Virus record (IMG/VR): IMGVR_UViG_3300035670_000522
Location: 1 to 40,647 of that record
Source: a virus
Lineage: Duplodnaviria > Caudoviricetes
Reading direction: 5' to 3' (one strand)
Length of the DNA stretch: 40,647 nucleotides
Under the pieces are notes generated by a model that had not been told where the DNA came from, ran no database searches, and saw nothing but the letters and a program-made list of their open reading frames with translations. Position 1 is the first letter of the stretch; each line of letters opens with the position of its first letter. This document shows, in pieces, positions 4,334-32,541 of this stretch. The position numbers and the translations under genes were made by a program.

Positions 4334-4644
4334 TCGTCATCACCATTGACATTGACCCAGTGCTGGCCGTCTTCCCCAAACCGGAGCGATTCATTTGGTT
4401 CCCAGCCAAGATCGCCAAGCCGGAGGAAAGTCGAAAATGACCCCATCGTTTCGTCATGGCGCCAACGTCGCAGTTCTGTAAGCTTTTCCATGACAGCGTT
4501 GAACCCGTTTTCTGGCAACGGTGCGGCGAGCGAAACAACAATGGATTCCAGAGCGTCGATGTAGTTATACACTCCTTCGGCGTTGCGTTTCTGATTGGCG
4601 TGATGAGCTTTCAGCCAATCGACTTCGGAAATGATTTTTTTCAT
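4330..4644 (-). CDS. Hypothetical protein
   Basis: ATGA-coupled ORF within the operon. Confidence 0.6.
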   Translation of the reverse strand: MKKIISEVDWLKAHHANQKRNAEGVYNYIDALESIVVSLAAPLPENGFNAVMEKLTELRRWRHDETMGSFSTFLRLGDLGWEPNESLRFGEDGQHWVNVNGDDE

Positions 4645-5024
4645 GCTGCCCTCCCCATGCTTTCAATGTGTTGCAGTTCGCCATTCTGGGCAAGCCATGC
4701 GGCCCGGATTTCAGCCACGCTGGATTTCCAAGGCAGGCCAAGGAACTCGGCGGCGTAATGGCGGATTCCGTAAAGCGCTGTGGTATGGTCACGGCCTCCG
4801 ACGATGCGGCCAACCTGGGGAAGGCTGCGGTAGACCGGGACGCCGTAGACCCACTTTTGGGGGGTGCAGAGCAGGCGCATGTAAAGCTCTCGGCGGGGGT
4901 GCATCAGCTTGTGCAGCTTGCTGGCGCCGGTCAGTTCCTGGCGGGTCAGGCCATACTCTTGCATCACGCACTGGATGTGCGATTCTGCGGGGGGTCCAAA
5001 TGTAGTCAGCCCTTCGGTATTCAT
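4641..5024 (-). CDS. Stand-alone DnaA C-terminal (domain IV) HTH protein
   Basis: SLPQVGRIVGGRDHTTALYG matches the DnaA signature SLPxIGxxFGGRDHTTV. Confidence 0.8.
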   Translation of the reverse strand: MNTEGLTTFGPPAESHIQCVMQEYGLTRQELTGASKLHKLMHPRRELYMRLLCTPQKWVYGVPVYRSLPQVGRIVGGRDHTTALYGIRHYAAEFLGLPWKSSVAEIRAAWLAQNGELQHIESMGRAA

Positions 5025-11452: not shown

Positions 11453-12138
11453 TGGACACGCTGCATAACAATCCCCCCTCGCCCGTCGAACTGTTCGCGG
11501 ATGAAATCGCCAGCCTCAAGGAGCGCATTGCAGCGTTCCCGCCTATCACCGAGGCCAACGCTGGCGAGGCCCGCGACCTGATCGGGCTGGCAAAGAAACT
11601 GGCAAAGGACATCAACGCCAAGCGCGACGAGGAAAAGCGCCCGCACCTAGAGGCAGGCCGTCAGATCGATGCGGCTTACAAGCCCCTGGTTGACGCTGCC
11701 AACGCTGCGCCTGCGCCCCTCTCGAATGCCCTCCTTGCCCACATCAACGAACAGAAGCGCCTCGCCGCTGAAGCCGCTGAGAAGGCCCGCCGTATGGCAG
11801 AGGAAGAAGCCCGGCGCGCTGCTGAACTGGCAGATGATCCGATCCTTGGCGAAGACATGGCGGACGCTGCCAAGCTGGCTGGGCAGAAGGCTGAAGTTGC
11901 CGCCGCATCGGTCAAGACGGTTGCGACCGTGAAGGGCTCTGAGGGCTTCCGGGCGGCAGGGGTTCGCAAGTCCTACAAGGCCGAAGTCTACAACTGGGAA
12001 GCGCTGGTGAAATACTACGCCGATCACGCTGACGTGCGGGCGGCGGCTGAGAAGGTCGCAAACGCTATGATCCGTGCTCACAAAGGACAGGTCGCAATCC
12101 CCGGCGTGAACGTCATCGAAGTGGAAAGCCTCGTCTAA
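11452..12138 (+). CDS. Ala-rich coiled-coil protein of the recombination module
   Basis: KRPHLEAGRQIDA motif and C-terminal IPGV; lies between the recombinase and ninB. Confidence 0.6.
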   Translation: MDTLHNNPPSPVELFADEIASLKERIAAFPPITEANAGEARDLIGLAKKLAKDINAKRDEEKRPHLEAGRQIDAAYKPLVDAANAAPAPLSNALLAHINEQKRLAAEAAEKARRMAEEEARRAAELADDPILGEDMADAAKLAGQKAEVAAASVKTVATVKGSEGFRAAGVRKSYKAEVYNWEALVKYYADHADVRAAAEKVANAMIRAHKGQVAIPGVNVIEVESLV

Positions 12139-12533
12139 TGTCCCGCTACGAGTTCGTCATCCACAAAGGCAACCGGGAGACGCTGGCTGAGAAGCTGCTG
12201 GCGCTCCCTACGGGATGGCGGGTGGAGTTCAAGGAAGCAAAGCGAACCGTGCCGCAGAACGATCGTTTTTGGGCGATGCTCACGGCCATCAGCACGCAGC
12301 TTGTTTGGTACGGCAAACGTCTGACGCCAGAAGATTGGAAGCTGATTTTTATGGCCGCACTAAATGAAGAACTCAGAATTGTCCCGAACATATACGGGGA
12401 TGGTTTTGTGCAGCTAGGGCGGTCGTCGTCAAAGCTGTCAAAAGACGAGATGTCGGATCTGATGGAATTGATCGAGGCATTTGCCGCTGAGCGCGGTGTG
12501 GATCTGAAGGAGCCGGCCGATGGAGAAGCGTAA
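12138..12533 (+). CDS. ninB: NinB/Orf recombination mediator
   Basis: KRTVPQNDRFWAML..IS.Q..WYG.RL..EDWK...GRSSSKLSK.EMSDLME.I.AF.AERGV. Confidence 0.9.
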   Translation: MSRYEFVIHKGNRETLAEKLLALPTGWRVEFKEAKRTVPQNDRFWAMLTAISTQLVWYGKRLTPEDWKLIFMAALNEELRIVPNIYGDGFVQLGRSSSKLSKDEMSDLMELIEAFAAERGVDLKEPADGEA

Positions 12534-12885
12534 GCCCCTCACCAGAGCCCAGATCGCAGAGATAACCCTACGCCAGCTAGGCAAGTGCGCCCGCTGTTCT
12601 GAGCGCCTGGATTTCGCAACCAAAGGCGCCGTGATTGATGAGCATCTTCATCCGTTGGCAGACGGCGGCACAAACGAGACAAGCAATCGGGCCTTCTATT
12701 GCAAGCCCTGTGCAAAGCCTAAGACTGCCAGGGAAGCCCGTGACAGGGGAAAGTCCAAGCGGATCGCAGAGGGCCGTACACAGGCAGACCGCAGAGCCCA
12801 GCGCGGGCCGACGATCAAGTCGCGGGGGTTCGACAAGACATGGAAACGCCGCATGGATGGAACAGTGGAGAGGGTAAGCAAGTGA
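12520..12885 (+). CDS. HNH endonuclease
   Basis: CARC...DEHLHPLADGGTNETSN...CKPC; terminal His appears replaced by Ala. Confidence 0.75.
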   Translation: MEKRKPLTRAQIAEITLRQLGKCARCSERLDFATKGAVIDEHLHPLADGGTNETSNRAFYCKPCAKPKTAREARDRGKSKRIAEGRTQADRRAQRGPTIKSRGFDKTWKRRMDGTVERVSK

Positions 12886-17704: not shown

Positions 17705-19984
17705 TCACATCTCGCCATTCACAAGCATCGAGGTCTGCGTGATCGTATCGGAAGAGTTCCCGAGCTGGCCGCTGAACGTCACGGTAATGTCTGTTGCAGC
17801 AGAAATGGAATAGCTGTTGATGATCGCAAAAGATGATCCGGCTTCCTCAAACGTCGAGATTTCGCACCAGACCACGGACCCGATGCGCGTGAGCCTGATC
17901 CGGCACGCCCAATCCTGCTGATCGCCCGCCGCTTCACTTGCGACTACCGTTGTGTTGCCATTGATGCTGAGCCGAACCGTTTTCGTGCCGTTCGTGCCGC
18001 TCGCCGTTCCGCTCGCAAAAATGCTTACGGAGCGCCCCGTGAATTGTTCGTTGGCGCTCAGGACATGAGACATCATATCCGTCGAAGACGTGGTGCCCGT
18101 CACGGTTTGAGTCGCGGTGTTCCGGTCGTAGACGGTTGATCCGTTGAACGCGCCGATGCGAAGCGTGTCAGACTTGGCCGCTGATGAAAGGATCAGCGGA
18201 CCGTTGAGGTTGCCTTGCACCTGGTTGTCGTTTGTGATGATCAGGTCAAGCGCGCCGTCATCAACATAAAAACCGTATTCCTGCGTGGGCGAGCCTTGAT
18301 CATCCCAAATCTGGTTGCCGCTGAGGATGATCTGCGACGGGCCAGTCGTAGAGGAAGACAGGATGCCGATGCCATCAAGGCCGACAGTCGTTGACCGCCC
18401 GGTCCCGGCCTGCCCGTTGTTTGAAATGAAACAGCCCTGCGCGGTTCCCTTCACCACACCGTTGCAGAACGTGATGCCGTTATTGTCATTGCCAGAGATT
18501 GTGCAGCCTAGATGGATGATTTCATCGGCCTGCCCCAAATGCCTGAACCCATCACCGCCATTGTCGATGGCTTGGCAACCAATATAGACAACTTTCTTGT
18601 ATTCCGGCGTCGAGAATCCCGTCTCGAACCCGCCGCCGTCATTGGATTCCGAATGGCAACTGACATAAGTGCCAAGCCCCTTGAACCCGTTCAGCCAGTT
18701 GTCACGCCCTTGGCACGCAATCATGCGTGCCGAATAATGCGCCGGACCCGCAAATCCAGTGCCGCCTGAGCCGCCACCTGATTGGTGTGCAGACGATCCG
18801 CAACCCGTGGCGATACAGCCGACAATCACGTCATCCTTGCCGCATTCGTCCGATGTAACGCCAGCGTCAGACCACATGAACCCATGATCCACGGCGTTCT
18901 TGACTTCAACGTTGGTCATCCGCCAGCGCTGCGATGCGCCGAGACGATAAATGCCGCGCCAGTCGTTTCCGGTGCCTACAGACTGGTTCGTCTTGTTGCC
19001 GTCAAACGTAATGCCTTCAAGCTCGATGTCAGAAATGTCCTCCGCAAACAGTACATGGTCGTTTGCCGCATTCGCCAGCTTGATGATCGTGCGGCCCATG
19101 CCAGCGCCGCGAATACGTTTGTTGCCGGTCAGGAGTACAAGGCCGTCAACGAGGTAGGTCCCCTCCGGAATAAAGATGTCGTCTTCTGCCAGCAAGCTCG
19201 TCAGTGCGGCTGTGTCATTCGCGCTGTTGTTCCCAAGCGCCCCGAAATCAAAGGCGTTGGCAACATCCCCAAACCGATCTGCCAGCGTGCGCGGTGTAGT
19301 CGAGCCAGTTGACGTAACTTCTGCCGCCCCAACGCCGCCGCCCGTGCCAATCCAGTCCGCAACGGTCGTTACGTCCGTGATGTTATCTGCCACCGTGCCA
19401 ATATCAAGGTCAGCATCCGCAACAATCGCAATGTCAGCCGCCATCGCCGCGACGGTATTGATGTCCGCAGCCAAGGCCTCAACCGTACCGAAGTCCGCAA
19501 TCTCAGGCTGGCCCGTCACCGAATCGAACCCGAGAAGCCCGCCTGCCCGCGCGCTCGCCGGAGGCAACCTATCCCATGCCGCATCAGACAGGGCGCCCCG
19601 AAGGCTGCGGTCCTGCTGGTCAAGAAGCTGCGTGGTCTGCACCACAAGCGTGTCCAGCGCCGTGTTGATCGCATCGGGAAGGAACGCCCCTGCGTTCTGA
19701 ACATTGAGCGTCTGGGCAAAGGCCCGGTCTGAAATGATCGTCAGCGTCGTACCCGTGGCCGGCGCAGTCAGCATCGTGATCGACCCGCCCGGCGAGGCGT
19801 TCTGGTCCGCGTTCAGGCTCACCGTGTAATGCGTGGTCAGGGTCTTGACCGTATCAACACCGCTGGTCGTCGTGACCACTTGCAGGTCAGCCGCCGCGAA
19901 CGTCTTGAAGCTGAACGCAAAGACCTGCGTCGATCCGTTCCCGCTATATGGCCCCGCCCGGCGTGTCTCTGTGCTGATCGTCAT
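17705..19984 (-). CDS. Tailspike/tail fibre with right-handed beta-helix (putative polysaccharide depolymerase)
   Basis: N-terminal podovirus anchor YSGNGSTQVFAFSF; VA-heptad stalk; DFGALGNNSANDTAAL pectate-lyase-like start; many N..GI/GF beta-helix repeats. Confidence 0.88.
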   Translation of the reverse strand: MTISTETRRAGPYSGNGSTQVFAFSFKTFAAADLQVVTTTSGVDTVKTLTTHYTVSLNADQNASPGGSITMLTAPATGTTLTIISDRAFAQTLNVQNAGAFLPDAINTALDTLVVQTTQLLDQQDRSLRGALSDAAWDRLPPASARAGGLLGFDSVTGQPEIADFGTVEALAADINTVAAMAADIAIVADADLDIGTVADNITDVTTVADWIGTGGGVGAAEVTSTGSTTPRTLADRFGDVANAFDFGALGNNSANDTAALTSLLAEDDIFIPEGTYLVDGLVLLTGNKRIRGAGMGRTIIKLANAANDHVLFAEDISDIELEGITFDGNKTNQSVGTGNDWRGIYRLGASQRWRMTNVEVKNAVDHGFMWSDAGVTSDECGKDDVIVGCIATGCGSSAHQSGGGSGGTGFAGPAHYSARMIACQGRDNWLNGFKGLGTYVSCHSESNDGGGFETGFSTPEYKKVVYIGCQAIDNGGDGFRHLGQADEIIHLGCTISGNDNNGITFCNGVVKGTAQGCFISNNGQAGTGRSTTVGLDGIGILSSSTTGPSQIILSGNQIWDDQGSPTQEYGFYVDDGALDLIITNDNQVQGNLNGPLILSSAAKSDTLRIGAFNGSTVYDRNTATQTVTGTTSSTDMMSHVLSANEQFTGRSVSIFASGTASGTNGTKTVRLSINGNTTVVASEAAGDQQDWACRIRLTRIGSVVWCEISTFEEAGSSFAIINSYSISAATDITVTFSGQLGNSSDTITQTSMLVNGEM

Positions 19985-19993
19985 CGATATCTC

Positions 19994-20425
19994 CTAGCTC
20001 AGTTTCTGCGCTTTGGCGCAGCGTGTCAAAACTTCATCTTTCAGGCGGGGGACATTGCTGTCAGGGTCTTCCTCGATCCACATCAGGGACATCTCTGCTG
20101 AGCAAGTCGTCTCGCCAATGTCCGCAAGGATGGCCTGCCGGGTGAAGTATCCGCTGATCATTCCAGACAGGATGAACACCGTCAGCGTTAGGAACGCGAC
20201 AGAGACGTAGGGACCGAACGTCAGGGCATGGGCCACCGCTGTAGGCACTTCCCGGCCCGGCAGCTTCTCAGGCTGTGCAGGGGCAGACAGGGCCTCTACC
20301 GCGTTCGCCGTCCGGTCAAGGAACTTGGACCGTAGCGGATGCTCAATCACGCCTTGCGGCAAAGGCTGGCGCACAGCGGATTCAACACCGGCTTTCTGGA
20401 GGATGTCCCTGACGCGCTCACTCAT
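19994..20425 (-). CDS. Single-pass membrane protein (lysis-region accessory)
   Basis: Likely start ATG 20425 (ATGA overlap); TM YVSVAFLTLTVFILSGMISGYF, then a short domain with two Cys. Confidence 0.6.
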   Translation of the reverse strand: MSERVRDILQKAGVESAVRQPLPQGVIEHPLRSKFLDRTANAVEALSAPAQPEKLPGREVPTAVAHALTFGPYVSVAFLTLTVFILSGMISGYFTRQAILADIGETTCSAEMSLMWIEEDPDSNVPRLKDEVLTRCAKAQKLS

Positions 20426-20703
20426 TGAGGGCAATCCATCTGGTGAAAGGCTTCCCGGTCGCAGGCGCTTGCCCATTGGCAGAGGTTTGCGCGCACATAC
20501 TGGCGCGCACCTACGGGCCAAACCGCCTGTTCCTCAGGTGGGGCGCTTACGGGCAAGGGTGTCTGGCCCCGGCACACTTCAGCTTTTGCCTCGGAAACCA
20601 GGGTCTCCTGCCTCTCGGTCACGTCCGAAGGTAAGCCGGAACTCTGTGTCTGACATGCTGGCAATAGGGTTAGGCACGTCGCGCATAGCACGCTCACCCG
20701 CAT
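20422..20703 (-). CDS. o-spanin (Rz1-like lipoprotein)
   Basis: MRVSVLCATCLTLLPA-C lipobox; Pro/Cys-rich; starts inside the upstream gene in another frame. Confidence 0.7.
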   Translation of the reverse strand: MRVSVLCATCLTLLPACQTQSSGLPSDVTERQETLVSEAKAEVCRGQTPLPVSAPPEEQAVWPVGARQYVRANLCQWASACDREAFHQMDCPQ

Positions 20704-20956
20704 CAATGGCCTGATCTGCATCACTCGTCTCCTGTTCGATAATCTCCTTGGCAGACTGATCCGCTTCTGCCTTGCGTTCAACATCTACCTCGCGCTGGCG
20801 CACACGTTCCTGTTTCCTGCCCTGCCCCTCGCGGCGTTCACCCCAGAGGATCAGCGCAATCAGGAACGCGAGGATGCCCAAGATCCACTGCACCACCGGA
20901 TTGTTCGCAATCCAGTTGCCAAGCTTTGAGAACACCATGCCGATGGCCGCAATCAT
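20579..20956 (-). CDS. i-spanin (Rz-like)
   Basis: N-terminal TM followed by a charged coiled coil; overlaps the lipoprotein gene; follows the endolysin. Confidence 0.7.
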   Translation of the reverse strand: MIAAIGMVFSKLGNWIANNPVVQWILGILAFLIALILWGERREGQGRKQERVRQREVDVERKAEADQSAKEIIEQETSDADQAIDAGERAMRDVPNPIASMSDTEFRLTFGRDREAGDPGFRGKS

Positions 20957-22083
20957 ACCAGCACCTTCTTCGCCTTCTTCTCACCCCACCAGCGCACGGC
21001 CTCTCCCGCAATCATCACGGCGAACCCGGTATAGGCGTCCAGCAGTATCGGATCAGCCGCAATCCCATTGGCGACCTGCCCCACCGCGCCGCCCGTCTGG
21101 GCTACAAGGCCGGCAGAGCCATCAGTGAAGAACGAGAACCGCCCCAGGATGATCAGCACCCAGCCCCAGAACCGGCGAGAGTAGACCATCGCCTTGGCCC
21201 CGGCGTTCGGGTCGAAGTCATTGGGCAGCGTCGGCTGCGGCTTGGGCGCGGACACGGGTTTCTCCTTGGGGATGGGAGGGGGTGGGATGATCTCTGGCAG
21301 GGGTTTGGCCTCAACCGGGACTGTCGGGGCAGGCTTGGGCGGATCGGGCTCAGCGGCAATTGTAGCGGCTTGCAGGGGATACTTCCGGGCCACCGCCAGC
21401 ACAGCGGCAAACTCAGTCTGCCGGACAATGCGGTCTTCCCATCGACCCTTGGCAGCGTTCCAGACGGCCTCGGTCGCCAGTTCGATGGCATCATTCTTGA
21501 CCGCCTCGCGCCAGTCCAGGCCAAGGAACATGCATCCTTCTGCATGATGACGCCGGAGAAGCCCACGAAACCTGCGGAAATACATGCAAGGCTTGCCGTC
21601 AGGTCCGATCCACCGGCCCGTGGCCCGGCTCCATTCAGGAAAGGACGGGGCAATTCCGGCAGCAATCTCGCTCGGGCTAGGCCCCGGACTGGTCGCCCCC
21701 GTCCACATACCAAACGCCGCCGCCGCATCTTCATACCGGCCATCATTCAGGTGCCGGACAACACTGGACTTTGCCGCTGCCGATCCGCCAATATTGAACG
21801 CAAGGCAGGCCAAGGCCCCCGCCTGATACGCCGTGATGTCACGGGTCAAGGCATTCCAGACCGGCGCGGCTTCCTTGCGTAGCGCGTACAGGGTCAGAGG
21901 CATCACCTGATCTTCGGTGATCGTGTCGCCCTTCTTGAACGGTACGTCATTCAGGTCGTAGGTGACACCATATGCCACCTCATACCGATTGCCTTCACAA
22001 AGCCGGGCCGTGAGCCGGGGCTTGCCCTCGAACTCGAACAGCAGTTCGAACGTCTTCGGGTGCAACTCAGGTGGGGTAATCAC
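20953..22083 (-). CDS. Endolysin (GH24 lysozyme) with Pro-rich linker and C-terminal membrane domain
   Basis: FEG...YG; AL.CLAFNIG...SSVVRHLNDG; GLLRR..AE..FL; C-terminal SRRFWGWVLIILG...GFAVMIAG. Confidence 0.85.
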   Translation of the reverse strand: MITPPELHPKTFELLFEFEGKPRLTARLCEGNRYEVAYGVTYDLNDVPFKKGDTITEDQVMPLTLYALRKEAAPVWNALTRDITAYQAGALACLAFNIGGSAAAKSSVVRHLNDGRYEDAAAAFGMWTGATSPGPSPSEIAAGIAPSFPEWSRATGRWIGPDGKPCMYFRRFRGLLRRHHAEGCMFLGLDWREAVKNDAIELATEAVWNAAKGRWEDRIVRQTEFAAVLAVARKYPLQAATIAAEPDPPKPAPTVPVEAKPLPEIIPPPPIPKEKPVSAPKPQPTLPNDFDPNAGAKAMVYSRRFWGWVLIILGRFSFFTDGSAGLVAQTGGAVGQVANGIAADPILLDAYTGFAVMIAGEAVRWWGEKKAKKVLV

Positions 22084-23534
22084 GCCGCTTCCTCCTGCGT
22101 CCCGCCATACACGACTTCGCCCGCGATCCAGACTTTCAACCGGCCACCGGGGTCAATGTCCAGCATCACCGGAACCCGCGCCCCAGCCTCCACCGGCAAG
22201 GTGCAGCGCCAGGCTTCCGTGTTGCCCTTGGCCACCGGGTCATCGCCTTGCAGGACAACCAGCTCAATCTCGGTCTGGTCTTCCCGCGCCGCCCTCAACA
22301 CCCGCTCGCGCCGGATCGGGAACGTCTCGCCCTTCTTGATGAATGCGTAATATCCTCCGCCCGCCACCCGCACGCCGACCGAAGCCGTCACGAGTTGCTG
22401 CATCACGGCAGGCTTGATCCGCCCGTCCAGTTCTGCCGCCCGGATTGCAGCACCGAGGGCAACCGCCTGCTCAGCTTTCGGGCCGTCCTTGATGATCTTC
22501 TTCGCCCCGAACATGCCTTCCAGCACCGAGCGGATCAGCGGCATACGGGATTGCCCACCCACCAGAAGCACCCCGTCGATCTCTGCCGGCGTCATCTTTG
22601 CCTGTGCCAATGCGTCCTGCACACTGGCAATCGTGCGGATCACAAGGTCTTCCGTCAGTTGCTCGAACTGCGCCCGCGTCACGGGCTCCGTCAGGCTGGA
22701 CAGGCCGGAACGCCATGCAACATTGGCCTCTTCGATCAGCGCCGTCTCGGACGTGGACAGGGCCTTCTTTGCATCCTCGGCCGCACGCAGCACGCCCACC
22801 ATCTGCTTTGGCTGTGCCCGCAGGTCTTCGCCTTCCTTGGCGAAGAACTGGTCAACGGCATAGTCAGCCAGCCGCTTGTCAAAGTCCGCCCCGCCAAGCT
22901 GGGCCGAACCGGACATGCCAAGGGCCTTGGTGTTGCCGTCCTTGATTTTCAGGATCGTGGCATCGAAGGTGCCGCCGCCAAAATCATACACCAGAACCCG
23001 GCTGTATTTCGTGCGGTCCAGTGAATAGGCCAGAGCAGCGCAATAAGGCTCGCGGAACAGGTCAACCTTCTTGATGCCTGCTAGTGCAGCAGCTTCCCGA
23101 ATGGCCTCATCCTGGGGCTCGCGGAAGTCCACAGGCACGGCAATGACCGCGCCCGTGGGCCTCCGACCGAGCCGCACATCTGCCGCCAGCAGGAGACTTT
23201 TCAGAACTTCGGCCACAAGCATCGGCCCGGAGAGCAAAGCATTGCGGCCCCGCCACCAGACCTTGCCGTCAGGGCCTTCCGCCAGATGGATAGACCCGTG
23301 TTCCTGTTCGTTGTAATCGACGCCGAGGTAGCGCTTGATGTTGTGGAACGTGAACTCAGGCGCGCGGCGCAGATGACGGGCAGCGGCTAGGCCAGTCACC
23401 AGACCTTCCGGCGTATCAGCCACGACCGAAGGCATGTAGTCTGCCCCGTCCACGGTCTCGATCATGTCCGGCCCGGTCGGGCGATAGAACGCCACCGAAG
23501 AATTGGACGTGCCGAAGTCGATGCCGATCCTCAT
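22080..23534 (-). CDS. Hsp70/DnaK-family ATPase, truncated after the beta-sandwich (no helical lid)
   Basis: IGIDFGTSNS, IKR, EP.CAALAY, VYDFGGGTFD, LGGADFD, VLLVGGQSRMP, AVALGAA, VLQGD; 484 aa. Confidence 0.93.
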   Translation of the reverse strand: MRIGIDFGTSNSSVAFYRPTGPDMIETVDGADYMPSVVADTPEGLVTGLAAARHLRRAPEFTFHNIKRYLGVDYNEQEHGSIHLAEGPDGKVWWRGRNALLSGPMLVAEVLKSLLLAADVRLGRRPTGAVIAVPVDFREPQDEAIREAAALAGIKKVDLFREPYCAALAYSLDRTKYSRVLVYDFGGGTFDATILKIKDGNTKALGMSGSAQLGGADFDKRLADYAVDQFFAKEGEDLRAQPKQMVGVLRAAEDAKKALSTSETALIEEANVAWRSGLSSLTEPVTRAQFEQLTEDLVIRTIASVQDALAQAKMTPAEIDGVLLVGGQSRMPLIRSVLEGMFGAKKIIKDGPKAEQAVALGAAIRAAELDGRIKPAVMQQLVTASVGVRVAGGGYYAFIKKGETFPIRRERVLRAAREDQTEIELVVLQGDDPVAKGNTEAWRCTLPVEAGARVPVMLDIDPGGRLKVWIAGEVVYGGTQEEAA

Positions 23535-24613
23535 GCGGTACGCTCCGCATCAAAGGCGCCGGGTTCATCAATCGGAATGCTGTCGTCTACCTTGCCGGTC
23601 TCGTTGTTGAACGCGGTGGATTCACCACCCTTCTGGGCGTTCGGATTCTTTGGCTTTGGCGGTTCAGGGGTGGGATCAGGTTCGGCCACCGCCTCGTCAA
23701 TCGCAGCGTCAATGTCAGGTTCGGTCACATCGGCGGATTGATCCTCCTCCCGATCCGTCGCCCGCCTGCCATACCGTGCATTCTCCCGTGTGCCTGCCAT
23801 CAGGAACGCCCAGACCCCAAACGAGCGCGCCGCCTCAGCGACTAGCAAAAGGATTTGTGCCCACAGTTCCCGGTAGCCTGCCTCATCGGCCTGCGTCCTA
23901 AGCGTGATCGCTTCCTCACGCTTGGCCTGTGCTGGGGCTAGGGCCATCACAGCGCTATCCTGTGCAGACCCCGTGTCCAGTTTCGATTGCAGCACAGCGA
24001 TACGGTTGCGGATCGTCTCGCCCCGTGCGCGCATGGCCGCTTCTGTCAACTCGGCCCGGATGCCATCAATGCGTCCCTCATAGAGACCCAGCGCGGTCAG
24101 CCTGCGTTGTGCCTCCTCAATCCGGCTGGAGGTCATCAGGTCCAGTTCAACGTTCAGCGCGGCCAGTTCCTCACGGTCCAGCCTGCGTTGCTCGCTGGCC
24201 TCGGTCTTCGTATCGGTCGGCAGGGTGTCCAGCTTTGCCGCCTCAGCGTCCGCCAGATCAGCGCGGGACCGAAGGGCTTCCGGTGCGTCAATGAACACAT
24301 CCGACATCCAGTGCTTGACCGCTGCCTTACCGTTCTCGACACAGAACCAGGCGAGGCCCGCAAACACCAGAACACCCACGGCCTGCCGCCAGCGGGTTTC
24401 ACCCAGCACGATCAGGGAGAACGCCGCCACAAGGGCAATCTCTGCCCCGATGGCAAGCCCTGTAAAGGCCCAGCTTTTCGTGGCAACCCAAGCGCCAGTG
24501 GCGTTCGTTATGGCAAGGAACAGCGTGATGAACGCAATGCCAACGCCGAAGATCCATTTCAGGAGCCGCCGTTCATCATGGACCGAAGACAGGCCAAGAG
24601 GCAGAGCCATCAC
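23531..24613 (-). CDS. Membrane protein with coiled coil and peptidoglycan-binding domain
   Basis: Three N-terminal TMs; IEEAQRRLTALGLYEGRIDGI...TEAAMR (PG_binding_1-like); later hydrophobic segment; acidic Pro-rich tail. Confidence 0.75.
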   Translation of the reverse strand: MMALPLGLSSVHDERRLLKWIFGVGIAFITLFLAITNATGAWVATKSWAFTGLAIGAEIALVAAFSLIVLGETRWRQAVGVLVFAGLAWFCVENGKAAVKHWMSDVFIDAPEALRSRADLADAEAAKLDTLPTDTKTEASEQRRLDREELAALNVELDLMTSSRIEEAQRRLTALGLYEGRIDGIRAELTEAAMRARGETIRNRIAVLQSKLDTGSAQDSAVMALAPAQAKREEAITLRTQADEAGYRELWAQILLLVAEAARSFGVWAFLMAGTRENARYGRRATDREEDQSADVTEPDIDAAIDEAVAEPDPTPEPPKPKNPNAQKGGESTAFNNETGKVDDSIPIDEPGAFDAERTA

Positions 24614-25020
24614 CCGCCCCCGTGTATAATCATGTTATACAGCGCATACAGAATGCCAGCAGCACCCACGACGCCAAGGGCGATGGTCTGACGGCTAATG
24701 TCAGCCTCGCGCTTCTTGTCACGTTCTTCCTGAGCCGCCAGCCGGTTCTCAAGCTCGCGCACCTTGGAATCCGCATAGGCCATGACCTCTGCCCGCATCT
24801 TCCCGATCTCCGCCGTCCGGTCTGCCGTGATTGTGCGAACCGCCTGATTGACTGCCTTTTCAATCAGCGCTTCAGTTTCCACCCTGATTTCAAGGCGTTG
24901 TTTTGCAGCCAGCTCGAAGTCGATGAATGACTTCATCGTGCCGCGCATCTCTGCGATCTCATCGGTCTGCTTCATAATCGCAGCCCGTAGAGCCTCCAGT
25001 CCCTCAGCCCCGTCAGCCAT
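24610..25020 (-). CDS. Coiled-coil protein with a C-terminal TM (holin/XhlA-like candidate)
   Basis: Long helical region, then IALGVVGAAGILYALYNMII at the C-terminus. Confidence 0.55.
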   Translation of the reverse strand: MADGAEGLEALRAAIMKQTDEIAEMRGTMKSFIDFELAAKQRLEIRVETEALIEKAVNQAVRTITADRTAEIGKMRAEVMAYADSKVRELENRLAAQEERDKKREADISRQTIALGVVGAAGILYALYNMIIHGGG

Positions 25021-25382
25021 CAGTCACCCGTTAACTGGATATGCGCGGTCAGGTGCCGCAGTCGTTCATGTTCTTCCGGGGCCATATCGCCGTCGCGTTG
25101 CAGGCCGAACAGTTCCACAATCTCAGCCCGGAGGCGGGCCAGTGTGGCCTCGTCCGTCTCGCCGGGGTTCGCCTCGTTGGCGAGAAATTCGCTCAGGGGG
25201 TCATACCGCATGAAGTCCGGCATCTGGATTTCGGCCGGCGCATCAAGGTAGCGATCCACGATGACTTCGCGGTCCACGTAGATCACCTCACCCGGCTTGC
25301 GGATTTTGCGCGCCGCAATCTCCTCGGCCCGCCATGCCGCATACCCTTCGCGGCCCAGTTCCTTAAACTTTTCAACGCTCAT
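25020..25382 (-). CDS. Hypothetical protein
   Basis: 120-aa ORF, TGATG-coupled to the next gene. Confidence 0.65.
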   Translation of the reverse strand: MSVEKFKELGREGYAAWRAEEIAARKIRKPGEVIYVDREVIVDRYLDAPAEIQMPDFMRYDPLSEFLANEANPGETDEATLARLRAEIVELFGLQRDGDMAPEEHERLRHLTAHIQLTGD

Positions 25383-28400: not shown

Positions 28401-28792
28401 TTCGGCATCGTGCCTTGCGTCAGGAGCGAGCCGACCGAGTTCTCACGGCTGAATGCAGCGCCCCAGAGTTCGCCCATCTCGGGTTTCTGGACCGGCTCGG
28501 GCGCCTTGATCTCGCTCAGGCCCATCGCTTCGATGCCTTCATACATCTGGAACGTGGGGCTGTTGGCCCGGTCAATGGCCAGCCAGCTTCCGCCTGCGGG
28601 TTTCTTCGGTTCTGGGATAACCGGGTTTGTGCCTTCGTTCAGGACAGACAGGCCAAGCAGGGCCTTTCCCATCTCGGGCACTCCGTCAGGGTCCAGCGGT
28701 TGCCTCGGCTGCGTCTCGGGCGCTACGAACTGCGGCGTAGTGGGCTGCTGCGGAACCGGGCCAACAACAGGGTCGGTGATGTCATTGATCAT
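25424..28792 (-). CDS. Large internal virion (DNA ejection) protein
   Basis: 1122 aa, helical, with Gly/Ala-rich hydrophobic stretches (GLLDPINLIP.GG); last gene of the podovirus ejection block. Confidence 0.7.
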   Translation of the reverse strand: MINDITDPVVGPVPQQPTTPQFVAPETQPRQPLDPDGVPEMGKALLGLSVLNEGTNPVIPEPKKPAGGSWLAIDRANSPTFQMYEGIEAMGLSEIKAPEPVQKPEMGELWGAAFSRENSVGSLLTQGTMPKAERDPTFNPLSDENLEGYEMYADRFVDVFSREQSEFVKRNIDRQNANTDMLMNSGWTGIGVMVAAGLLDPINLIPIGGIAKKGETLLQVGGRWALAGAAGGAATETALQSTQQTRTLEESALNITGGALLGGLLGSGGTAVYRGATGKPIYGFDPDFEPLSKRLEREMVYDPDGDPIRLAETADTAAMSNPGSLSAAAVPQVTPEDFALAPSFGTADASAAIKLNPLLRLATASSGKAREIGAMLMENGMFLNRNKKGLASPVAVETAMGEYRGWHAVAEQSARDAHKAHRKSGGTMTATEFYEEVGMALRRGDQHPDANVQKAAQGYRVALEKTKQRAIEAGLLPKDVDVETAPSYLHRMWNRQALVRKPEDFRRMVGAWLDQTFANMKVRAANIQADAVRTGAKLSDDDAAFIKQVDELLEIERVEGDLTGYRSDAVESIYNTLMGYDERTLPINITAGPRGPLKERTFSIPDLFEGGGARVEDFLVNDAQVVMNRYMRVISADIELAKTFGTPDMKTVLDDIQKDYQDLIAKVAPEDQAGKKKLSEEMRARMRDIEGVRDVIRGSYGEPTYESALARGLSYVRAWNYMTMLGGMTISAFPDVAGKVLSNGFLGIARDLVGPLVTDLKGVKMAAREANAIGIAVERVLSTRIATMADIGDVYGQGTVTQRAVASLSNRFSHLTLMTAWNDVMKTADYVIASNRAIRAMGRPDRISQSNRTWLANMGIGETDYGRIMAMVRKHGSESGGMRLANPEQWEDAYARRLWIGAMGKNANIQTVTAGIGDKLMHRGAGGLFDMNLPIGQTIWQFKTFVLAGNQRIAIRMAQQGRMAEGRVLSALFTYIALGMLVYKLKSMGSGRDTSDDPVVWVREGVDRSGIAPLFMEGFNTAEKITNKTFIGESPASRFASRGAFASTLGPSVGRGEDAFAAIRNVTDGSLKDRDIHSLRKLLPYNNIFWLRTLFDEAEIAIIEAGDLEKTEFSENRQSVLE

Positions 28793-31700
28793 TCAAGGCC
28801 CCGTCTGCGGCGTTCTTTGATCGCCAGCGCTTCTTCTGTCCGTGCCATGTTCTGTTCGGCTTCGGGCGTCATGGGAAGCGGGTTGTATGTGATCGGGGCG
28901 GGCTCGCGGGTCTGGCCGCGCGCTTCCATCTCGGCACGCATCACGGCTTCTTCCTGTGCCTTCCAGCGGGCAAACTCGGCAGGGGTCATGTCTTCCGGGG
29001 GTATTTCCGGCTCAGTGCGCTGGATGCCGTCCCAGCCCATGCCGATAGCAATGGCACCGCCTGCCGCTGCTGCGCCGCCTGCGTAGAGACCGGCTTCGGC
29101 TATGCGGCCGGTGAGGGAGAGGCCGGGTTCTTCTGGTGGAACGTCAAGCGCATCATCCGCCATCTCATCCAGCGGCCCGCCCCTCTGCGATGCCAACAGG
29201 TTCGCACTCCCCGCATTGTCCGGATCAAAGGCGGCGTTTACGGAGCGGATGTTGGAGGGGTCGAAGATGGTCACAATATCCGCGACTTCGGGGCCGTCCT
29301 TGAAATTGTTCAAGCGCAGGCCGTCATAGCCTTCAGCTTTTGCCTCATCCAGCATTTTAGAAAGTTTGATCTCATTGGCGCGATACTGCGCGCCTTCCAT
29401 GTCAATGGTCTTTATCCGTCCTCGGACATATAGAGGCATGGTCTGCTTTTGCTGCATGAATTGATCGCGGGCCGCTTTAACAGCGTCAAAATCGGGATAC
29501 AATTCACCGGACCGAGAAACCGCCGAAAGGTCTCCATAGAAATCTGCAACAGTCGGAGATGTTGTCAGGAACACGCCTCTTTGAGCGCTTTCCGCATTAG
29601 AAGATGTGCCAAACGTTTTCGGATCAAACGAGTCAAAAGACCGGGTCGTCCCATGATACAGCACCGTCTCCGTATCGAACCCCATCTCATTCGCCCGAGC
29701 CATCCGCCCAGCTTGGGACATATCAAGGCCCTTGGCTTTCGCGGCTTCCCATTCAGGGCTTCCGGGGGTCTCGAACTTGGCGGCTTGTTGCGGCGTGCGC
29801 GAGCCTCCTACGCCAGCCGTGAGAATGGGGGATGCAGCTTTGTCGGGTCCGCCCATGTTCATCAGGTCAGTGATGGACTTGCGCATGAAGGCTTTGTCAT
29901 CACCGTTGAAACGGCTGCCGTATGACCCTAGCGCGTTGTTAAACACCTCTGCTGGATCACGGCCTTGAAATTTGGCTTCAGCAATTGCCCGACGCGCGAT
30001 GGACGCATAAAGCCTTTCCTCGGACGTGTATGGCGGCACGCCTCTGGCAATTCTTTCCGCAGGCTCGTTTGCGAGCGGAAAACGCCGGAATGCATCGGCC
30101 AAAACATCTTCGTACCTGCCGTTCTCTATTTCCTCAAAAGCATTGCGAAGGGCAATCGCATCGTTAATGTCTGCGATTTCTGCATCTACGTGATCGGGGT
30201 TGCTTTGCTCTCGCAGTCTGGCAAATTCTTCTTCTTCTGACTTCGTCAGGTAGCTCTTACGGCTTAGGTATTTGAACGCCCGCGCCTTCTTTTCATCGCC
30301 GTAAAACGCTTTAACAAGGTCAGCAAATTCAGCATCTTGAATTTGCTTAACAATGCCGCGCATTTCCTCGGCTGTCGGCTGGACTTCCCCGTCAATAATC
30401 CGCTGTAAGCTTTGCGGGCTTCCGGGGGTCTCGAAGCGTTCGATTTCGTCAAGAGGGCCGCCGCGCTCCGAGAACATCTTCCCCTCGCGGTCCAGCACTT
30501 TCACATCGCTGTCGTTGAACGCGACGTAATTGAACGTCTGGCCCTTCCTGTTCCGCTTGCCGCGTGAGAACCCGTCCAGATACCGAAGGCCGCGCACGCC
30601 CATCTCGCGCATGATCTGCATCGCTTCGGTGTTCGTGCCTTTCAGGGAGGCGACCAGAACGTCCATGCGGGTCTCGTCGCCGTACTTGGCCAGCACATCT
30701 GCGCCTTTGCCCAGCGCGCCCTTCTCTGCCGCCGCCCGGAACGCGGCCTTGACCTTCTCGGGCTGTTTGCCGAACGGGAGGTCATACTGGATCGTGGCGT
30801 CTGCCGGCAGTTTCACCGCAACGGTGTAGATGTTGCCACCGCCGCGCAGGAGGCGCTTGGACGGCTTCGGAATGCCCTTGCTGGACTCGGGGTCTAGCGT
30901 CTTGAGGTAGGCAATCCCTGCCTCCAGGAACTTGATCAGTTCCTCTCTGTCCTTGATGACGGGGCGTTCGACGGAGGCAAACTCGGTTGACCTGCCCCCA
31001 CCCGGATACGAAAGCGGATACTTGATCTGATCCAGTTCATATTGAAGCGACCAGAGAGCGCCTTCCAGTGCGCCGCCGTGAGACCGATCAGAAGCAAGAG
31101 ATTTGTAGCCTCCGAACAGCTCATGATACAGAGATTTGTTCCGGTACTTCCAATACTCTGACAGCGCAAAGTGCGCCGGGTTGGCCTTGTTGAAATCCTC
31201 CTTTCCCATTTTCAAGCCGGGTGCCAGCTTCTTCATCCGCTTGCGATACCATTCCGCAATGCCCCGGCTCTGTGTGAAATAGTGCCCCGGCCCAAACGCC
31301 TGCGCGCCTTCGCCTGAGCCAACCTTCTCCAGCTTGAACTCATCAAACTTCGCCAGCGTTCCGTGGAACGCGATGAACTCATCAAGGTCGAGAACTTCCA
31401 TTTCGCTGGTCAGTTCCAGAACGTCCGTCTTTGAGTCTTCGACCGCCGCCCGGATTTCAGGGTCAGCGGTCTCGCTCATCGCGGTTCGCATCTGCGGCGT
31501 TGGCAGCAATTCTTCCGCAGCCACGTCATACTGATCCTTGGGGAACACGCCCGCGCGCTGCTCCGCGCTCATGGTGCGCCGCGTCTCGGCAAGCCTTGCT
31601 TCGACCTCACCGGGCAGGCGGCGGTAATACTCGATTTCCGCTTGCTGCTGGATCGCGGCTTTCAGCGTATCCATCTGCGTCTTGATGATCTTCTTCTGCG

Positions 31701-32541
31701 CCGGGTCCGTCGCCCGGTCATGCTTCAGTTTCAGATCCCCGAGACGGCCAATCGCCCGCTCAATCTGCGGTGTGTCCCAGAACTCCTTGCCTGCCTTCGG
31801 CGAGCCGCCCCGTGCAAAGCCCTCGGCCTGCTGGACCGCGTGCTGCACTTCATGGACAATGGCTTCAGCGGCTTCCTGTCGGGTCAGGCGGTTGTTTACG
31901 ATGACGGTTTTGAAAAACCTGTCATAGGCCCCCGTTGCCCCGGCAATGACTTCGCCCTGATCATCGCGCCGGATCGGACCCATGTCCTTGAACATGATCT
32001 GGGCTTTCTTCAGATCGGGATAGGCGGCAAACAGTTCGTCATGGCTGAACAGTTCCTCAAGGTCGAACTCCCATGACATCTTGGGCGGCTCGATAAGAAG
32101 CTCAGCCTTGCTGTCATCGATCTCGTATTTCCATGCGCCTTCCTCGCCCCGGAGCCATCCGGTTTCTGCCCAGATAGCCTTCGGGTCTGCGCCGGCCGCT
32201 TCCAGCGTCTTGGCTCGCTCCAGCTTTGGAAGCGGTGCCTGGCGAGAACTGATCCCGCCGAAGATGCCCATGACTTCCGTGCCGGGCGGCTCAAGAAACC
32301 GTTCCGCATCGGTCGGCGCCTTCGGTGCCCGGACCAAAGTGCGCGCCGTCACTGCGCCGCCGGCAAGCGCCACCATGTTAGCCAGCCGTTCCTCGGTCGT
32401 CTCAGCCGGAAGGACAGCGCCCGCTGCACCGCCAAGCGCTGCCGGACCTACGTTCTGCTCCACAGCCGCAGCAACCGGCGCCACCGGCAACTCGCCTGCC
32501 GCCTTGGCGACTTCTCTCCCGATTGCAGAGACCCAGCCCAT
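28789..32541 (-). CDS. Polyvalent protein (LPD23 + zincin metallopeptidase + two ADP-ribosyltransferase-like domains), probably virion-delivered
   Basis: IWAETGW.RG..G.WKYEIDDS (LPD23); HEVQH...GEVEAR; FHGT...G.GEGAQAFGPGHYFT; LYHGT...GVFLT...GYDG...FDPSNIRS. Confidence 0.75.
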   Translation of the reverse strand: MGWVSAIGREVAKAAGELPVAPVAAAVEQNVGPAALGGAAGAVLPAETTEERLANMVALAGGAVTARTLVRAPKAPTDAERFLEPPGTEVMGIFGGISSRQAPLPKLERAKTLEAAGADPKAIWAETGWLRGEEGAWKYEIDDSKAELLIEPPKMSWEFDLEELFSHDELFAAYPDLKKAQIMFKDMGPIRRDDQGEVIAGATGAYDRFFKTVIVNNRLTRQEAAEAIVHEVQHAVQQAEGFARGGSPKAGKEFWDTPQIERAIGRLGDLKLKHDRATDPAQKKIIKTQMDTLKAAIQQQAEIEYYRRLPGEVEARLAETRRTMSAEQRAGVFPKDQYDVAAEELLPTPQMRTAMSETADPEIRAAVEDSKTDVLELTSEMEVLDLDEFIAFHGTLAKFDEFKLEKVGSGEGAQAFGPGHYFTQSRGIAEWYRKRMKKLAPGLKMGKEDFNKANPAHFALSEYWKYRNKSLYHELFGGYKSLASDRSHGGALEGALWSLQYELDQIKYPLSYPGGGRSTEFASVERPVIKDREELIKFLEAGIAYLKTLDPESSKGIPKPSKRLLRGGGNIYTVAVKLPADATIQYDLPFGKQPEKVKAAFRAAAEKGALGKGADVLAKYGDETRMDVLVASLKGTNTEAMQIMREMGVRGLRYLDGFSRGKRNRKGQTFNYVAFNDSDVKVLDREGKMFSERGGPLDEIERFETPGSPQSLQRIIDGEVQPTAEEMRGIVKQIQDAEFADLVKAFYGDEKKARAFKYLSRKSYLTKSEEEEFARLREQSNPDHVDAEIADINDAIALRNAFEEIENGRYEDVLADAFRRFPLANEPAERIARGVPPYTSEERLYASIARRAIAEAKFQGRDPAEVFNNALGSYGSRFNGDDKAFMRKSITDLMNMGGPDKAASPILTAGVGGSRTPQQAAKFETPGSPEWEAAKAKGLDMSQAGRMARANEMGFDTETVLYHGTTRSFDSFDPKTFGTSSNAESAQRGVFLTTSPTVADFYGDLSAVSRSGELYPDFDAVKAARDQFMQQKQTMPLYVRGRIKTIDMEGAQYRANEIKLSKMLDEAKAEGYDGLRLNNFKDGPEVADIVTIFDPSNIRSVNAAFDPDNAGSANLLASQRGGPLDEMADDALDVPPEEPGLSLTGRIAEAGLYAGGAAAAGGAIAIGMGWDGIQRTEPEIPPEDMTPAEFARWKAQEEAVMRAEMEARGQTREPAPITYNPLPMTPEAEQNMARTEEALAIKERRRRGLE
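29756..29775. repeat. 20-bp direct repeat, copy 1
   Basis: GGGCTTCCGGGGGTCTCGAA, identical to 30416-30435. Confidence 0.9.
30416..30435. repeat. 20-bp direct repeat, copy 2
   Basis: GGGCTTCCGGGGGTCTCGAA, identical to 29756-29775. Confidence 0.9.

Follow-up and report, generated by a model that had tools for sequence, protein, structure and literature searches.

We describe an eight-gene cassette in an uncultured phage (IMG/VR record IMGVR_UViG_3300035670_000522), in which the gene for a membrane protein runs into a gene for an Hsp70 that lacks the α-helical lid of DnaK. The whole record, 40,647 nt long, is the window analysed here, and all window coordinates refer to it. Judged by its sequence, the window Hsp70 belongs to a phage subfamily and is no captured DnaK; this subfamily appears to be new and non-chaperone-like. 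Comparison of loci indicates that the tail of the membrane protein and the Hsp70 swap as one unit onto different membrane heads, including heads without a peptidoglycan (PG)-binding segment. The cassette as a whole is of the endolysin-spanin kind, in a variant that is new. We consider it probable that the Hsp70 binds the membrane protein tail as a dedicated partner, and a role of the module in lysis seems likely, if held with slightly less assurance.

A lidless Hsp70 subfamily

The membrane protein, Hsp70 and endolysin genes are arranged in the window as follows:

23531..24613, minus strand, start likely the ATG at 24610: membrane protein with three transmembrane (TM) helices, a coiled-coil hairpin and one further TM helix (AlphaFold2 model, four hydrophobic peaks, homologues).
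24026..24130, minus strand: partial PG_binding_1-like segment at the coil tip, residues 162-196 (E 2e-4, below the Pfam cut-off).
23567..23632, minus strand: motif at the end of the tail (KGG, basic/polar helix, IPI), spanning residues 328-349, a candidate ligand of the Hsp70 (motif counts).
22080..23534, minus strand: lidless Hsp70 of 484 amino acids (aa), a nucleotide-binding domain with a minimal β-sandwich (PF00012, E 3e-94; ratio of nonsynonymous to synonymous substitution rates, dN/dS, 0.06 and 0.21).
20953..22083, minus strand: GH24 endolysin with a proline-rich linker and a C-terminal hydrophobic hairpin (PF00959 Phage_lysozyme, E 1e-15).

The first-pass annotation, made from the sequence of the window, had named an Hsp70 gene; the identity stands, with the amendment that the protein ends after the β-sandwich, its alignment to DnaK stopping at about DnaK residue 490. 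The Pfam match, the structural model and a residue map all place it in the superfamily, with an actin-fold nucleotide-binding domain, conserved ATP-site residues and a β-sandwich. In the model (predicted local distance difference test, pLDDT, 90.6) the nucleotide-binding domain is docked on a small β-sandwich, and the closest match in a fold search is ATP-state DnaK (template modelling score 0.90-0.91). A first protein search returned 35 relatives of 43-99% identity, 34 of them 484-494 aa long, followed by a gap down to DnaK at 38%; a search with distant members added 77 further clusters of 482-514 aa. The subfamily thus comprises 34 + 77 = 111 clusters of 482-514 aa, all without the lid, counts from which one 351-aa fragment and one 630-aa protein were left out.

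Within the subfamily, D8, K70, E171, D194, K270, G341, G342 and R345 are kept in 111/111 members and T199 in 109/111. The catalytic residues are thus present, and the Hsp70 is a putative ATPase. The hydrophobic linker VLLLD of DnaK and the J-domain and allosteric contacts, roles which we assign from the DnaK literature, are mostly replaced: Y145 and L392 and I483 are found in none of the 111 members, R167 and R467 in one each, N170 and Q378 in two each and E217 in three, with D393 kept in clade 2 only. The 123 full-length DnaK sequences that served as controls, after four of at most 600 aa had been removed, keep Y145, R167, Q378, L392, I483, R467 and E217 in 118-123 cases. The pocket is retained in a reshaped form: Q433 is present in 107/111 members, and F426 and V436 in 0/111. 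DnaK, HscA and HscC resemble the phage protein in fold and in catalytic and nucleotide residues but differ from it in lid and contacts. The window Hsp70 also scores below every NCBIfam cut-off (323 bits against 823 for the DnaK equivalog, 268 against 709 for HscA). In a quick tree with long branches flagged, one branch (Shimodaira-Hasegawa-like approximate likelihood ratio test, SH-aLRT, 97) separates 19 family members from 33 other Hsp70s, and HscA and HscC fall outside the family side, subject to the same long-branch caveat. No DnaJ or GrpE domain was detected in the 11 records searched, four of them at least 90% complete; host co-chaperones are possible.

Collections of phages (50,697 records) and plasmids (72,556) yielded no member of the subfamily among the best 40 of 42 and the best 40 of 360 matches, respectively (best identity 36%). 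The ESM Atlas gave no usable match, and a source label, 'Acidiphilium sp.', is attached to only a single, distant family member. When the Hsp70 alignment was used for a scan, ordinary Hsp70s dominated the result: beyond two known loci, 75 of 78 others had open reading frames of 606-654 aa, and the remaining three were locus L023 (534 aa) and two loci without a reading-frame length. A clade-1 motif scan gave 13 true and three chance loci in metagenomes, and chance loci only (7/7) in GTDB genomes. In the top small-phage match, L172 (GenBank OQ572408.1, labelled Pseudomonas phage), the gene for a full-length DnaK is flanked by grpE-like and dnaJ-like genes as on a chromosome, so that this stretch is likely host DNA.

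The membrane protein and its tails

It was a question raised by the first-pass annotation whether Hsp70 homologues would have conserved neighbours. The succession of membrane protein, Hsp70 and endolysin genes is found again at loci whose Hsp70 identity is as low as 33%, so the linkage stands.

In the AlphaFold2 model of the membrane protein (mean pLDDT 77), three TM helices are followed by a long hairpin of helices, then by a fourth TM helix and a tail that is disordered; the sequence has four hydrophobic peaks. From basic residues that precede helix 1 and follow helix 4, a topology with the coil in the periplasm and the tail in the cytoplasm is predicted. The protein has 48 close homologues, and 52 representatives at E<=1e-30. 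No fold match was found in the PDB at E<=0.001; seven were found in BFVD at this threshold, all uncharacterised or unnamed. Matches to BAR domains and alpha-pore toxins were weak (E>0.06) and were not used. The protein had been annotated as membrane-anchored and PG-binding, and as part of a wall-anchored apparatus. A partial PG_binding_1 match is indeed present, covering model positions 2-36 of 57 with 21.8 bits against the Pfam cut-off of 23; the same partial stretch exceeds the cut-off in 5/40 homologues scanned, and the profile of the membrane protein draws many repeat PG-binding proteins on it. The segment is, however, absent from several relatives. The heads in L002, L004, L097 and L121 belong to a different four-helix coiled-coil family (the L121 head with a weak DUF4407 match) that retains the tail end and the Hsp70, and the PG-binding segment was not detected in the first three and is weak in L121. 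The wall-anchoring segment is thus dispensable in relatives, and the first-pass reading has to be changed on this point. Among the database relatives, P0226 and P0234-P0237 have the head and the PG-binding segment with little tail, and P0214, P0218, P0245 and P0291 have a helix-turn-helix (HTH) tail without the PG-binding segment, which indicates that head, PG-binding segment and tail are independent modules.

A DNA pattern for the membrane protein alone, with no selection for Hsp70, gave 38 viral loci, of which four were chance matches, one was cut by a contig end and 33 were usable. At 29 of these 33, a short tail made of GG, a basic helix and a hydrophobic end is followed by an Hsp70 gene, which in 28 of the 29 starts within -16 to +11 nt of the membrane gene and in one follows an HNH-like insert. 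The other four usable loci (three distinct proteins: L088, L089 and L134/L165) have a longer tail domain with the endolysin directly next, and no Hsp70 was found elsewhere in these four records, which are 45-95% complete. The cassette thus also exists without Hsp70, which is optional, and the first-pass reading has to be changed here too. The longer tail matches HTH domains, namely the ParB-type domain of P1 ParB (E 0.007) and, in one relative, HTH_38 (E 0.0015).

The short-tail pattern, defined as G-G/A/K/L, 9-22 residues and three mostly hydrophobic residues near the end, is present in 39/41 distinct Hsp70-linked upstream proteins, 0/3 Hsp70-less ones, 8.5% of shuffled tails and 0/85 DnaK ends. 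A tail profile gives at least 9 bits to 23/27 short-tailed database proteins and more than 0 bits to 0/21 long-tailed ones, the classes of these proteins, which come without gene context, having been labelled by eye. It had been suggested that the Hsp70 acts on the acidic tail of the membrane protein. A target in the tail is the best-supported option, but the conserved part is the last ~35 residues and not the acidic linker. In a tree of 76 heads, which leaves out L161, L159 and the heads without PG-binding segment, the HTH tail needs 3-5 changes, and L157, with a short tail and an Hsp70, shares a 99%-supported head clade with L089, with an HTH tail and none.

Several loci depart from these arrangements. 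A third tail type, coiled and basic, occurs on the same head in one clade (P0174, P0175, P0179, P0180, P0189, P0200 and P0045-P0047). A gene of 197-205 aa (phrog_3704, E 2e-19) lies between the membrane gene and the Hsp70 gene with overlapping junctions in L090 (1428-2021), L095 (1324-1941), L096 and L101, and L161 has an HNH-like gene in this position. At L023 (8731-11590, plus strand) a less reduced Hsp70 follows an unrelated TM-coil protein without the tail motif, with spanin-like genes upstream, and faces a second gene for a 3TM-coil-TM-HTH-like protein (11894-12745, minus strand). The L023 Hsp70 (534 aa), which has a lid stub, R167 and D393, adjoins the family branch in the quick tree; this arrangement is possibly an early or an independent form.

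Exchange of tail and Hsp70 between loci

Exchange was assessed on 36 distinct loci, which give 630 non-independent pairs. Where the heads are near-identical, the Hsp70s fall below 75% identity in 60/98 pairs; where the tails are near-identical, this is so in 1/24. Between the window and L099, for example, the head is 96% and the endolysin N-terminal part 92% identical, and the tail and the Hsp70 only 47% and 73%. The exchanged unit is thus the tail plus the Hsp70, with a breakpoint inside the membrane gene. In two or more independent cases (L095/L099; L136 versus L141/146/162), the endolysin has been replaced while the Hsp70 stayed the same, and L023, whose record is 88% complete, retains a membrane protein and a short Hsp70 but shows no GH24 lysozyme. 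Both observations favour the membrane protein as the partner of the Hsp70. The capsid protein of the window is matched in only 2/14 cassette records, including 1/5 near-complete ones, which argues against a client in the virion.

Proposed mechanism and alternative explanations

HscA is specialised for a short proline-containing motif. Another parallel comes from the eukaryotic ribosome-associated complex, in which the lidless Hsp70 Ssz1, with an altered linker, holds a short Leu/Pro motif of its partner Zuo1 as a pseudo-substrate, according to the cited parts of PMC7083937. Ssz1 itself shows no ATP hydrolysis and pairs with a J protein on the ribosome, whereas the phage Hsp70 keeps the catalytic residues and has a membrane protein as candidate partner; the likeness is an analogy only. 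The membrane protein can be compared with Streptomyces SpdB2, for which parts of PMC4447253 describe four predicted TM helices, binding to peptidoglycan and DNA, and a pore that lets T7 lysozyme reach the wall. This likeness is one of architecture: no shared Pfam match was seen, the membrane protein has no plasmid match, and the cited parts of PMC4447253 describe no Hsp70 partner for SpdB2.

On these parallels we propose a model in which the Hsp70 would bind the terminal motif of the membrane protein tail in its β-sandwich pocket, as Ssz1 holds the LP motif of Zuo1, and would serve as a dedicated nucleotide-gated clamp whose ATP or ADP state holds or releases the membrane protein. The four-helix protein would in turn form or control a lesion in the inner membrane, as SpdB2 does, and so give the tail-anchored endolysin access to the wall; the version with an HTH tail would take its cue from DNA instead of nucleotide. 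The whole chain, from tail clamp through nucleotide gating to the timing of endolysin access, is a tentative proposal that we rate somewhat below an even chance. The broader reading, lysis control of a new class with a wall-touching four-helix effector and a swappable cytoplasmic sensor (an Hsp70 reading ATP/ADP or an HTH domain reading free DNA), is more speculative still.

Several observations weigh against this model. Near-identical endolysin N-terminal parts are also rarely found with a diverged Hsp70 (2/20 pairs), the partial correlation of the tail with the Hsp70 pocket domain (0.50) equals that of the endolysin (0.50), and because the tail is short and the tail and Hsp70 genes touch, their co-inheritance can be linkage alone. 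Many cassette loci are near-copies, the short-tail pattern was written after the tails had been viewed and misses L023 and L161, and the Hsp70-less class consists of only three distinct proteins with context from incomplete records. The membrane protein matched no known holin or pore in family and fold searches. Some allostery, moreover, may be left: D393 (68/77) and D326 (71/77) are retained in clade 2, where residual coupling may thus exist, P143 does not vary, and the docking in the model resembles that of ATP-state DnaK.

One alternative is that the tail only anchors the Hsp70, whose client would be the endolysin's catalytic domain, kept competent to cross the inner membrane via the four-helix protein. 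The overlap of the Hsp70 stop with the endolysin start fits such an export or folding aid, as does an endolysin that tracks the Hsp70 as tightly as the tail does, and the cited parts of PMC8943055 state that export of the catalytic domain of C-terminally anchored endolysins is not understood. We nevertheless regard it as unlikely, given that Hsp70-less cassettes retain the same type of tail-anchored endolysin, that endolysins are exchanged under an unchanged Hsp70, that L023 has the pair without a GH24 gene, and that loss of the lid and of the J interface argues against a ratchet.

We give a similarly low probability to a function outside lysis, in which the membrane protein and its handle would hold the phage's DNA or intermediates of assembly at the envelope, or would block superinfection or host defence, and would have no more in common with the lysis genes than the late operon. 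Wherever the locus is long enough, with the exception of L023, the membrane gene or the pair runs into the endolysin gene, mostly with overlapping codons. No minus-strand promoter-like site was found within the cassette, a weak test in which promoter and terminator counts were those of chance, and PADLOC matched 0/5 window proteins scanned (among 13 proteins scanned there was one weak ZorA coil match, E 0.005). What speaks for such a function is that the alternative tail is an HTH domain, that SpdB2, which comes closest in architecture, acts in the translocation of DNA (PMC4447253, in the parts cited), and that L023 has its second 3TM-coil-TM-HTH-like gene on the opposite strand.

A factor in virion assembly, or a virion component, is very unlikely. 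Closterovirus Hsp70h, which serves plant-virus particles and movement, sets a precedent: this viral Hsp70 has ATPase activity, leaves unfolded chains unbound and acts in the assembly of particles (PMC7772802, in the parts cited). The phage cassette, too, is surrounded by late genes and adjoins those for tail fibres; the phage Hsp70, however, follows the tail of the membrane gene and not the capsid module, and related cassettes lack it. Least credible, and already largely refuted, is a host-derived general chaperone or decaying passenger: full-length DnaK is known in jumbo phages (moraphages, in the cited parts of PMC12619734), yet the length here is fixed at 482-514 aa, the ATP site is invariant, dN/dS is 0.06-0.21, co-chaperones are missing and the position is fixed. 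Jumbo phages also encode J proteins and Hsp60, according to parts of PMC7824862. The three megaphage DnaK copies examined (from among moraphages, Lak and others) are full length at 625-656 aa and branch with DnaK, unlike the lidless phage Hsp70.

The endolysin and the other cassette genes

The first-pass annotation of the endolysin as a lysozyme with a TM domain was confirmed. The protein has no N-terminal signal and has two moderate hydrophobic peaks; the catalytic-position residue E19 is invariant (12/12), and the second and third triad positions vary. Its layout of muramidase, proline linker and TM hairpin is shared with SpmX, a host gene of Caulobacterales (10.1101/418723, in the parts cited), and the SpmX model matches the muramidase part only (E 9e-12), far below its cut-off; phage endolysins of this layout may resemble the SpmX ancestor. 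The TM tail is as in Enc34 ORF39, which with M4Lys represents the C-terminally anchored endolysins, but the Enc34 enzyme belongs to another family (PMC8943055, in the parts cited). Among the relatives, two or more TM tails that are unrelated to each other are exchanged.

The remaining genes of the cassette are:

25020..25382, minus strand: soluble 120-aa protein, first cassette gene (homologues at the matching position in relatives; dN/dS 0.10).
24610..25020, minus strand: coiled coil with one C-terminal TM helix, 136 aa (hydrophobic peak at 113-131; positional homologues; dN/dS 0.015).
20579..20956, minus strand: i-spanin, Rz-like (phrog_7686 E 2e-3, phrog_1026 E 9e-3; N-terminal TM helix).
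20422..20721, minus strand: o-spanin, Rz1-like lipoprotein of 99 aa (lipobox LPAC, ribosome-binding site AGGAG, positional homologues).
19994..20425, minus strand: single-TM protein of 143 aa, last cassette gene (alignment of 12; dN/dS 0.10).

All eight genes lie on the minus strand in the order first annotated. The overlapping stop and start codons and nested frames were found as claimed (junction gaps in gene order of -1, -4, -4, -4 and -4 nt, a 143-nt i-spanin/o-spanin overlap, and -4), except that two starts were moved: the o-spanin most likely starts at 20721, with AGGAG upstream, and the last gene at 20425, in an ATGA overlap. The spanin pair also held, as an Rz with an N-terminal TM helix and an overlapping Rz1 lipoprotein, although the Rz match is weak (E 2e-3). 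The cassette is under purifying selection, with dN/dS of 0.015-0.21 in all seven cassette gene comparisons made, and is conserved across uncultured phage records of 33-57 kb.

With the holin-endolysin-spanin cassette it shares the GH24 endolysin and Rz/Rz1, and it differs by four extra conserved genes, an optional ATPase and no recognisable holin; no cassette gene significantly matched a holin family. The 136-aa coiled coil-TM protein, without a significant match in Pfam or PHROG, is, by its XhlA-like architecture, a candidate holin accessory. The first-gene protein has no match in Pfam, PHROG, NCBIfam or PADLOC. The last gene, whose product has two invariant cysteines in its C-terminal part (alignment of 12), occurs in cassettes with and without Hsp70. 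In the clade of L089 (8976-9437) and L157 (4552-4989), a gene for a soluble protein of 145-153 aa, with no family assigned, lies between the first two cassette genes.

Genome setting and neighbouring genes

The window record is linear, with a completeness estimate of 95%. Its capsid protein is 60-63% identical to BPP-1-like podophage capsids, and the nozzle, gp14-like and internal virion proteins agree with this assignment. No integrase was found in the window record; one is present in 2/9 records searched, and one record is classed as a provirus. A beta-helix tail spike gene (17705-19984, minus strand) lies downstream of the cassette, as in L002, L003 and L007, and upstream in L004, L088, L116 and L119. 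Among the internal virion genes, 28789-32541 (minus strand) encodes a polyvalent protein of 1250 aa, in which LPD23 is combined with a stretch resembling a metallopeptidase (putative) and with two stretches of ART-PolyVal ADP-ribosyltransferase; the versions in relatives are 2100-2700 aa long and have different domains. A stand-alone gene for a DnaA C-terminal HTH domain (4641-5024, minus strand) directly follows the replication initiator and DnaB helicase genes.

Implications

In the classical view, holins and antiholins determine when lysis occurs. We know of no lysis cassette with an NTPase of its own, and none surfaced in the literature searched; nor did the literature on phage Hsp70 and lysis, in which few subscription papers were covered, yield a description of a phage Hsp70/DnaK lysis module. 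If the proposed model is true, bursting would be tied to the energy or packaging state of the cell, and the cassette would be the first, among the literature searched, to be run by its own ATPase, as well as a case from a prokaryotic virus in which an Hsp70 has given up the work of a chaperone to become a switch with one client. With its widespread and swappable handle, Hsp70 or HTH, the lysis-linked membrane protein would offer a system in which to study how phages link bursting to the state of the cell, and it also bears on how tail-anchored endolysins cross the membrane, which the cited parts of the Enc34 paper call unexplained (PMC8943055). For chaperone biology, the subfamily provides more than 100 natural lidless Hsp70s with a graded loss of allosteric residues, from L023 through clade 2 to clade 1, and with a candidate cognate peptide for many of them.

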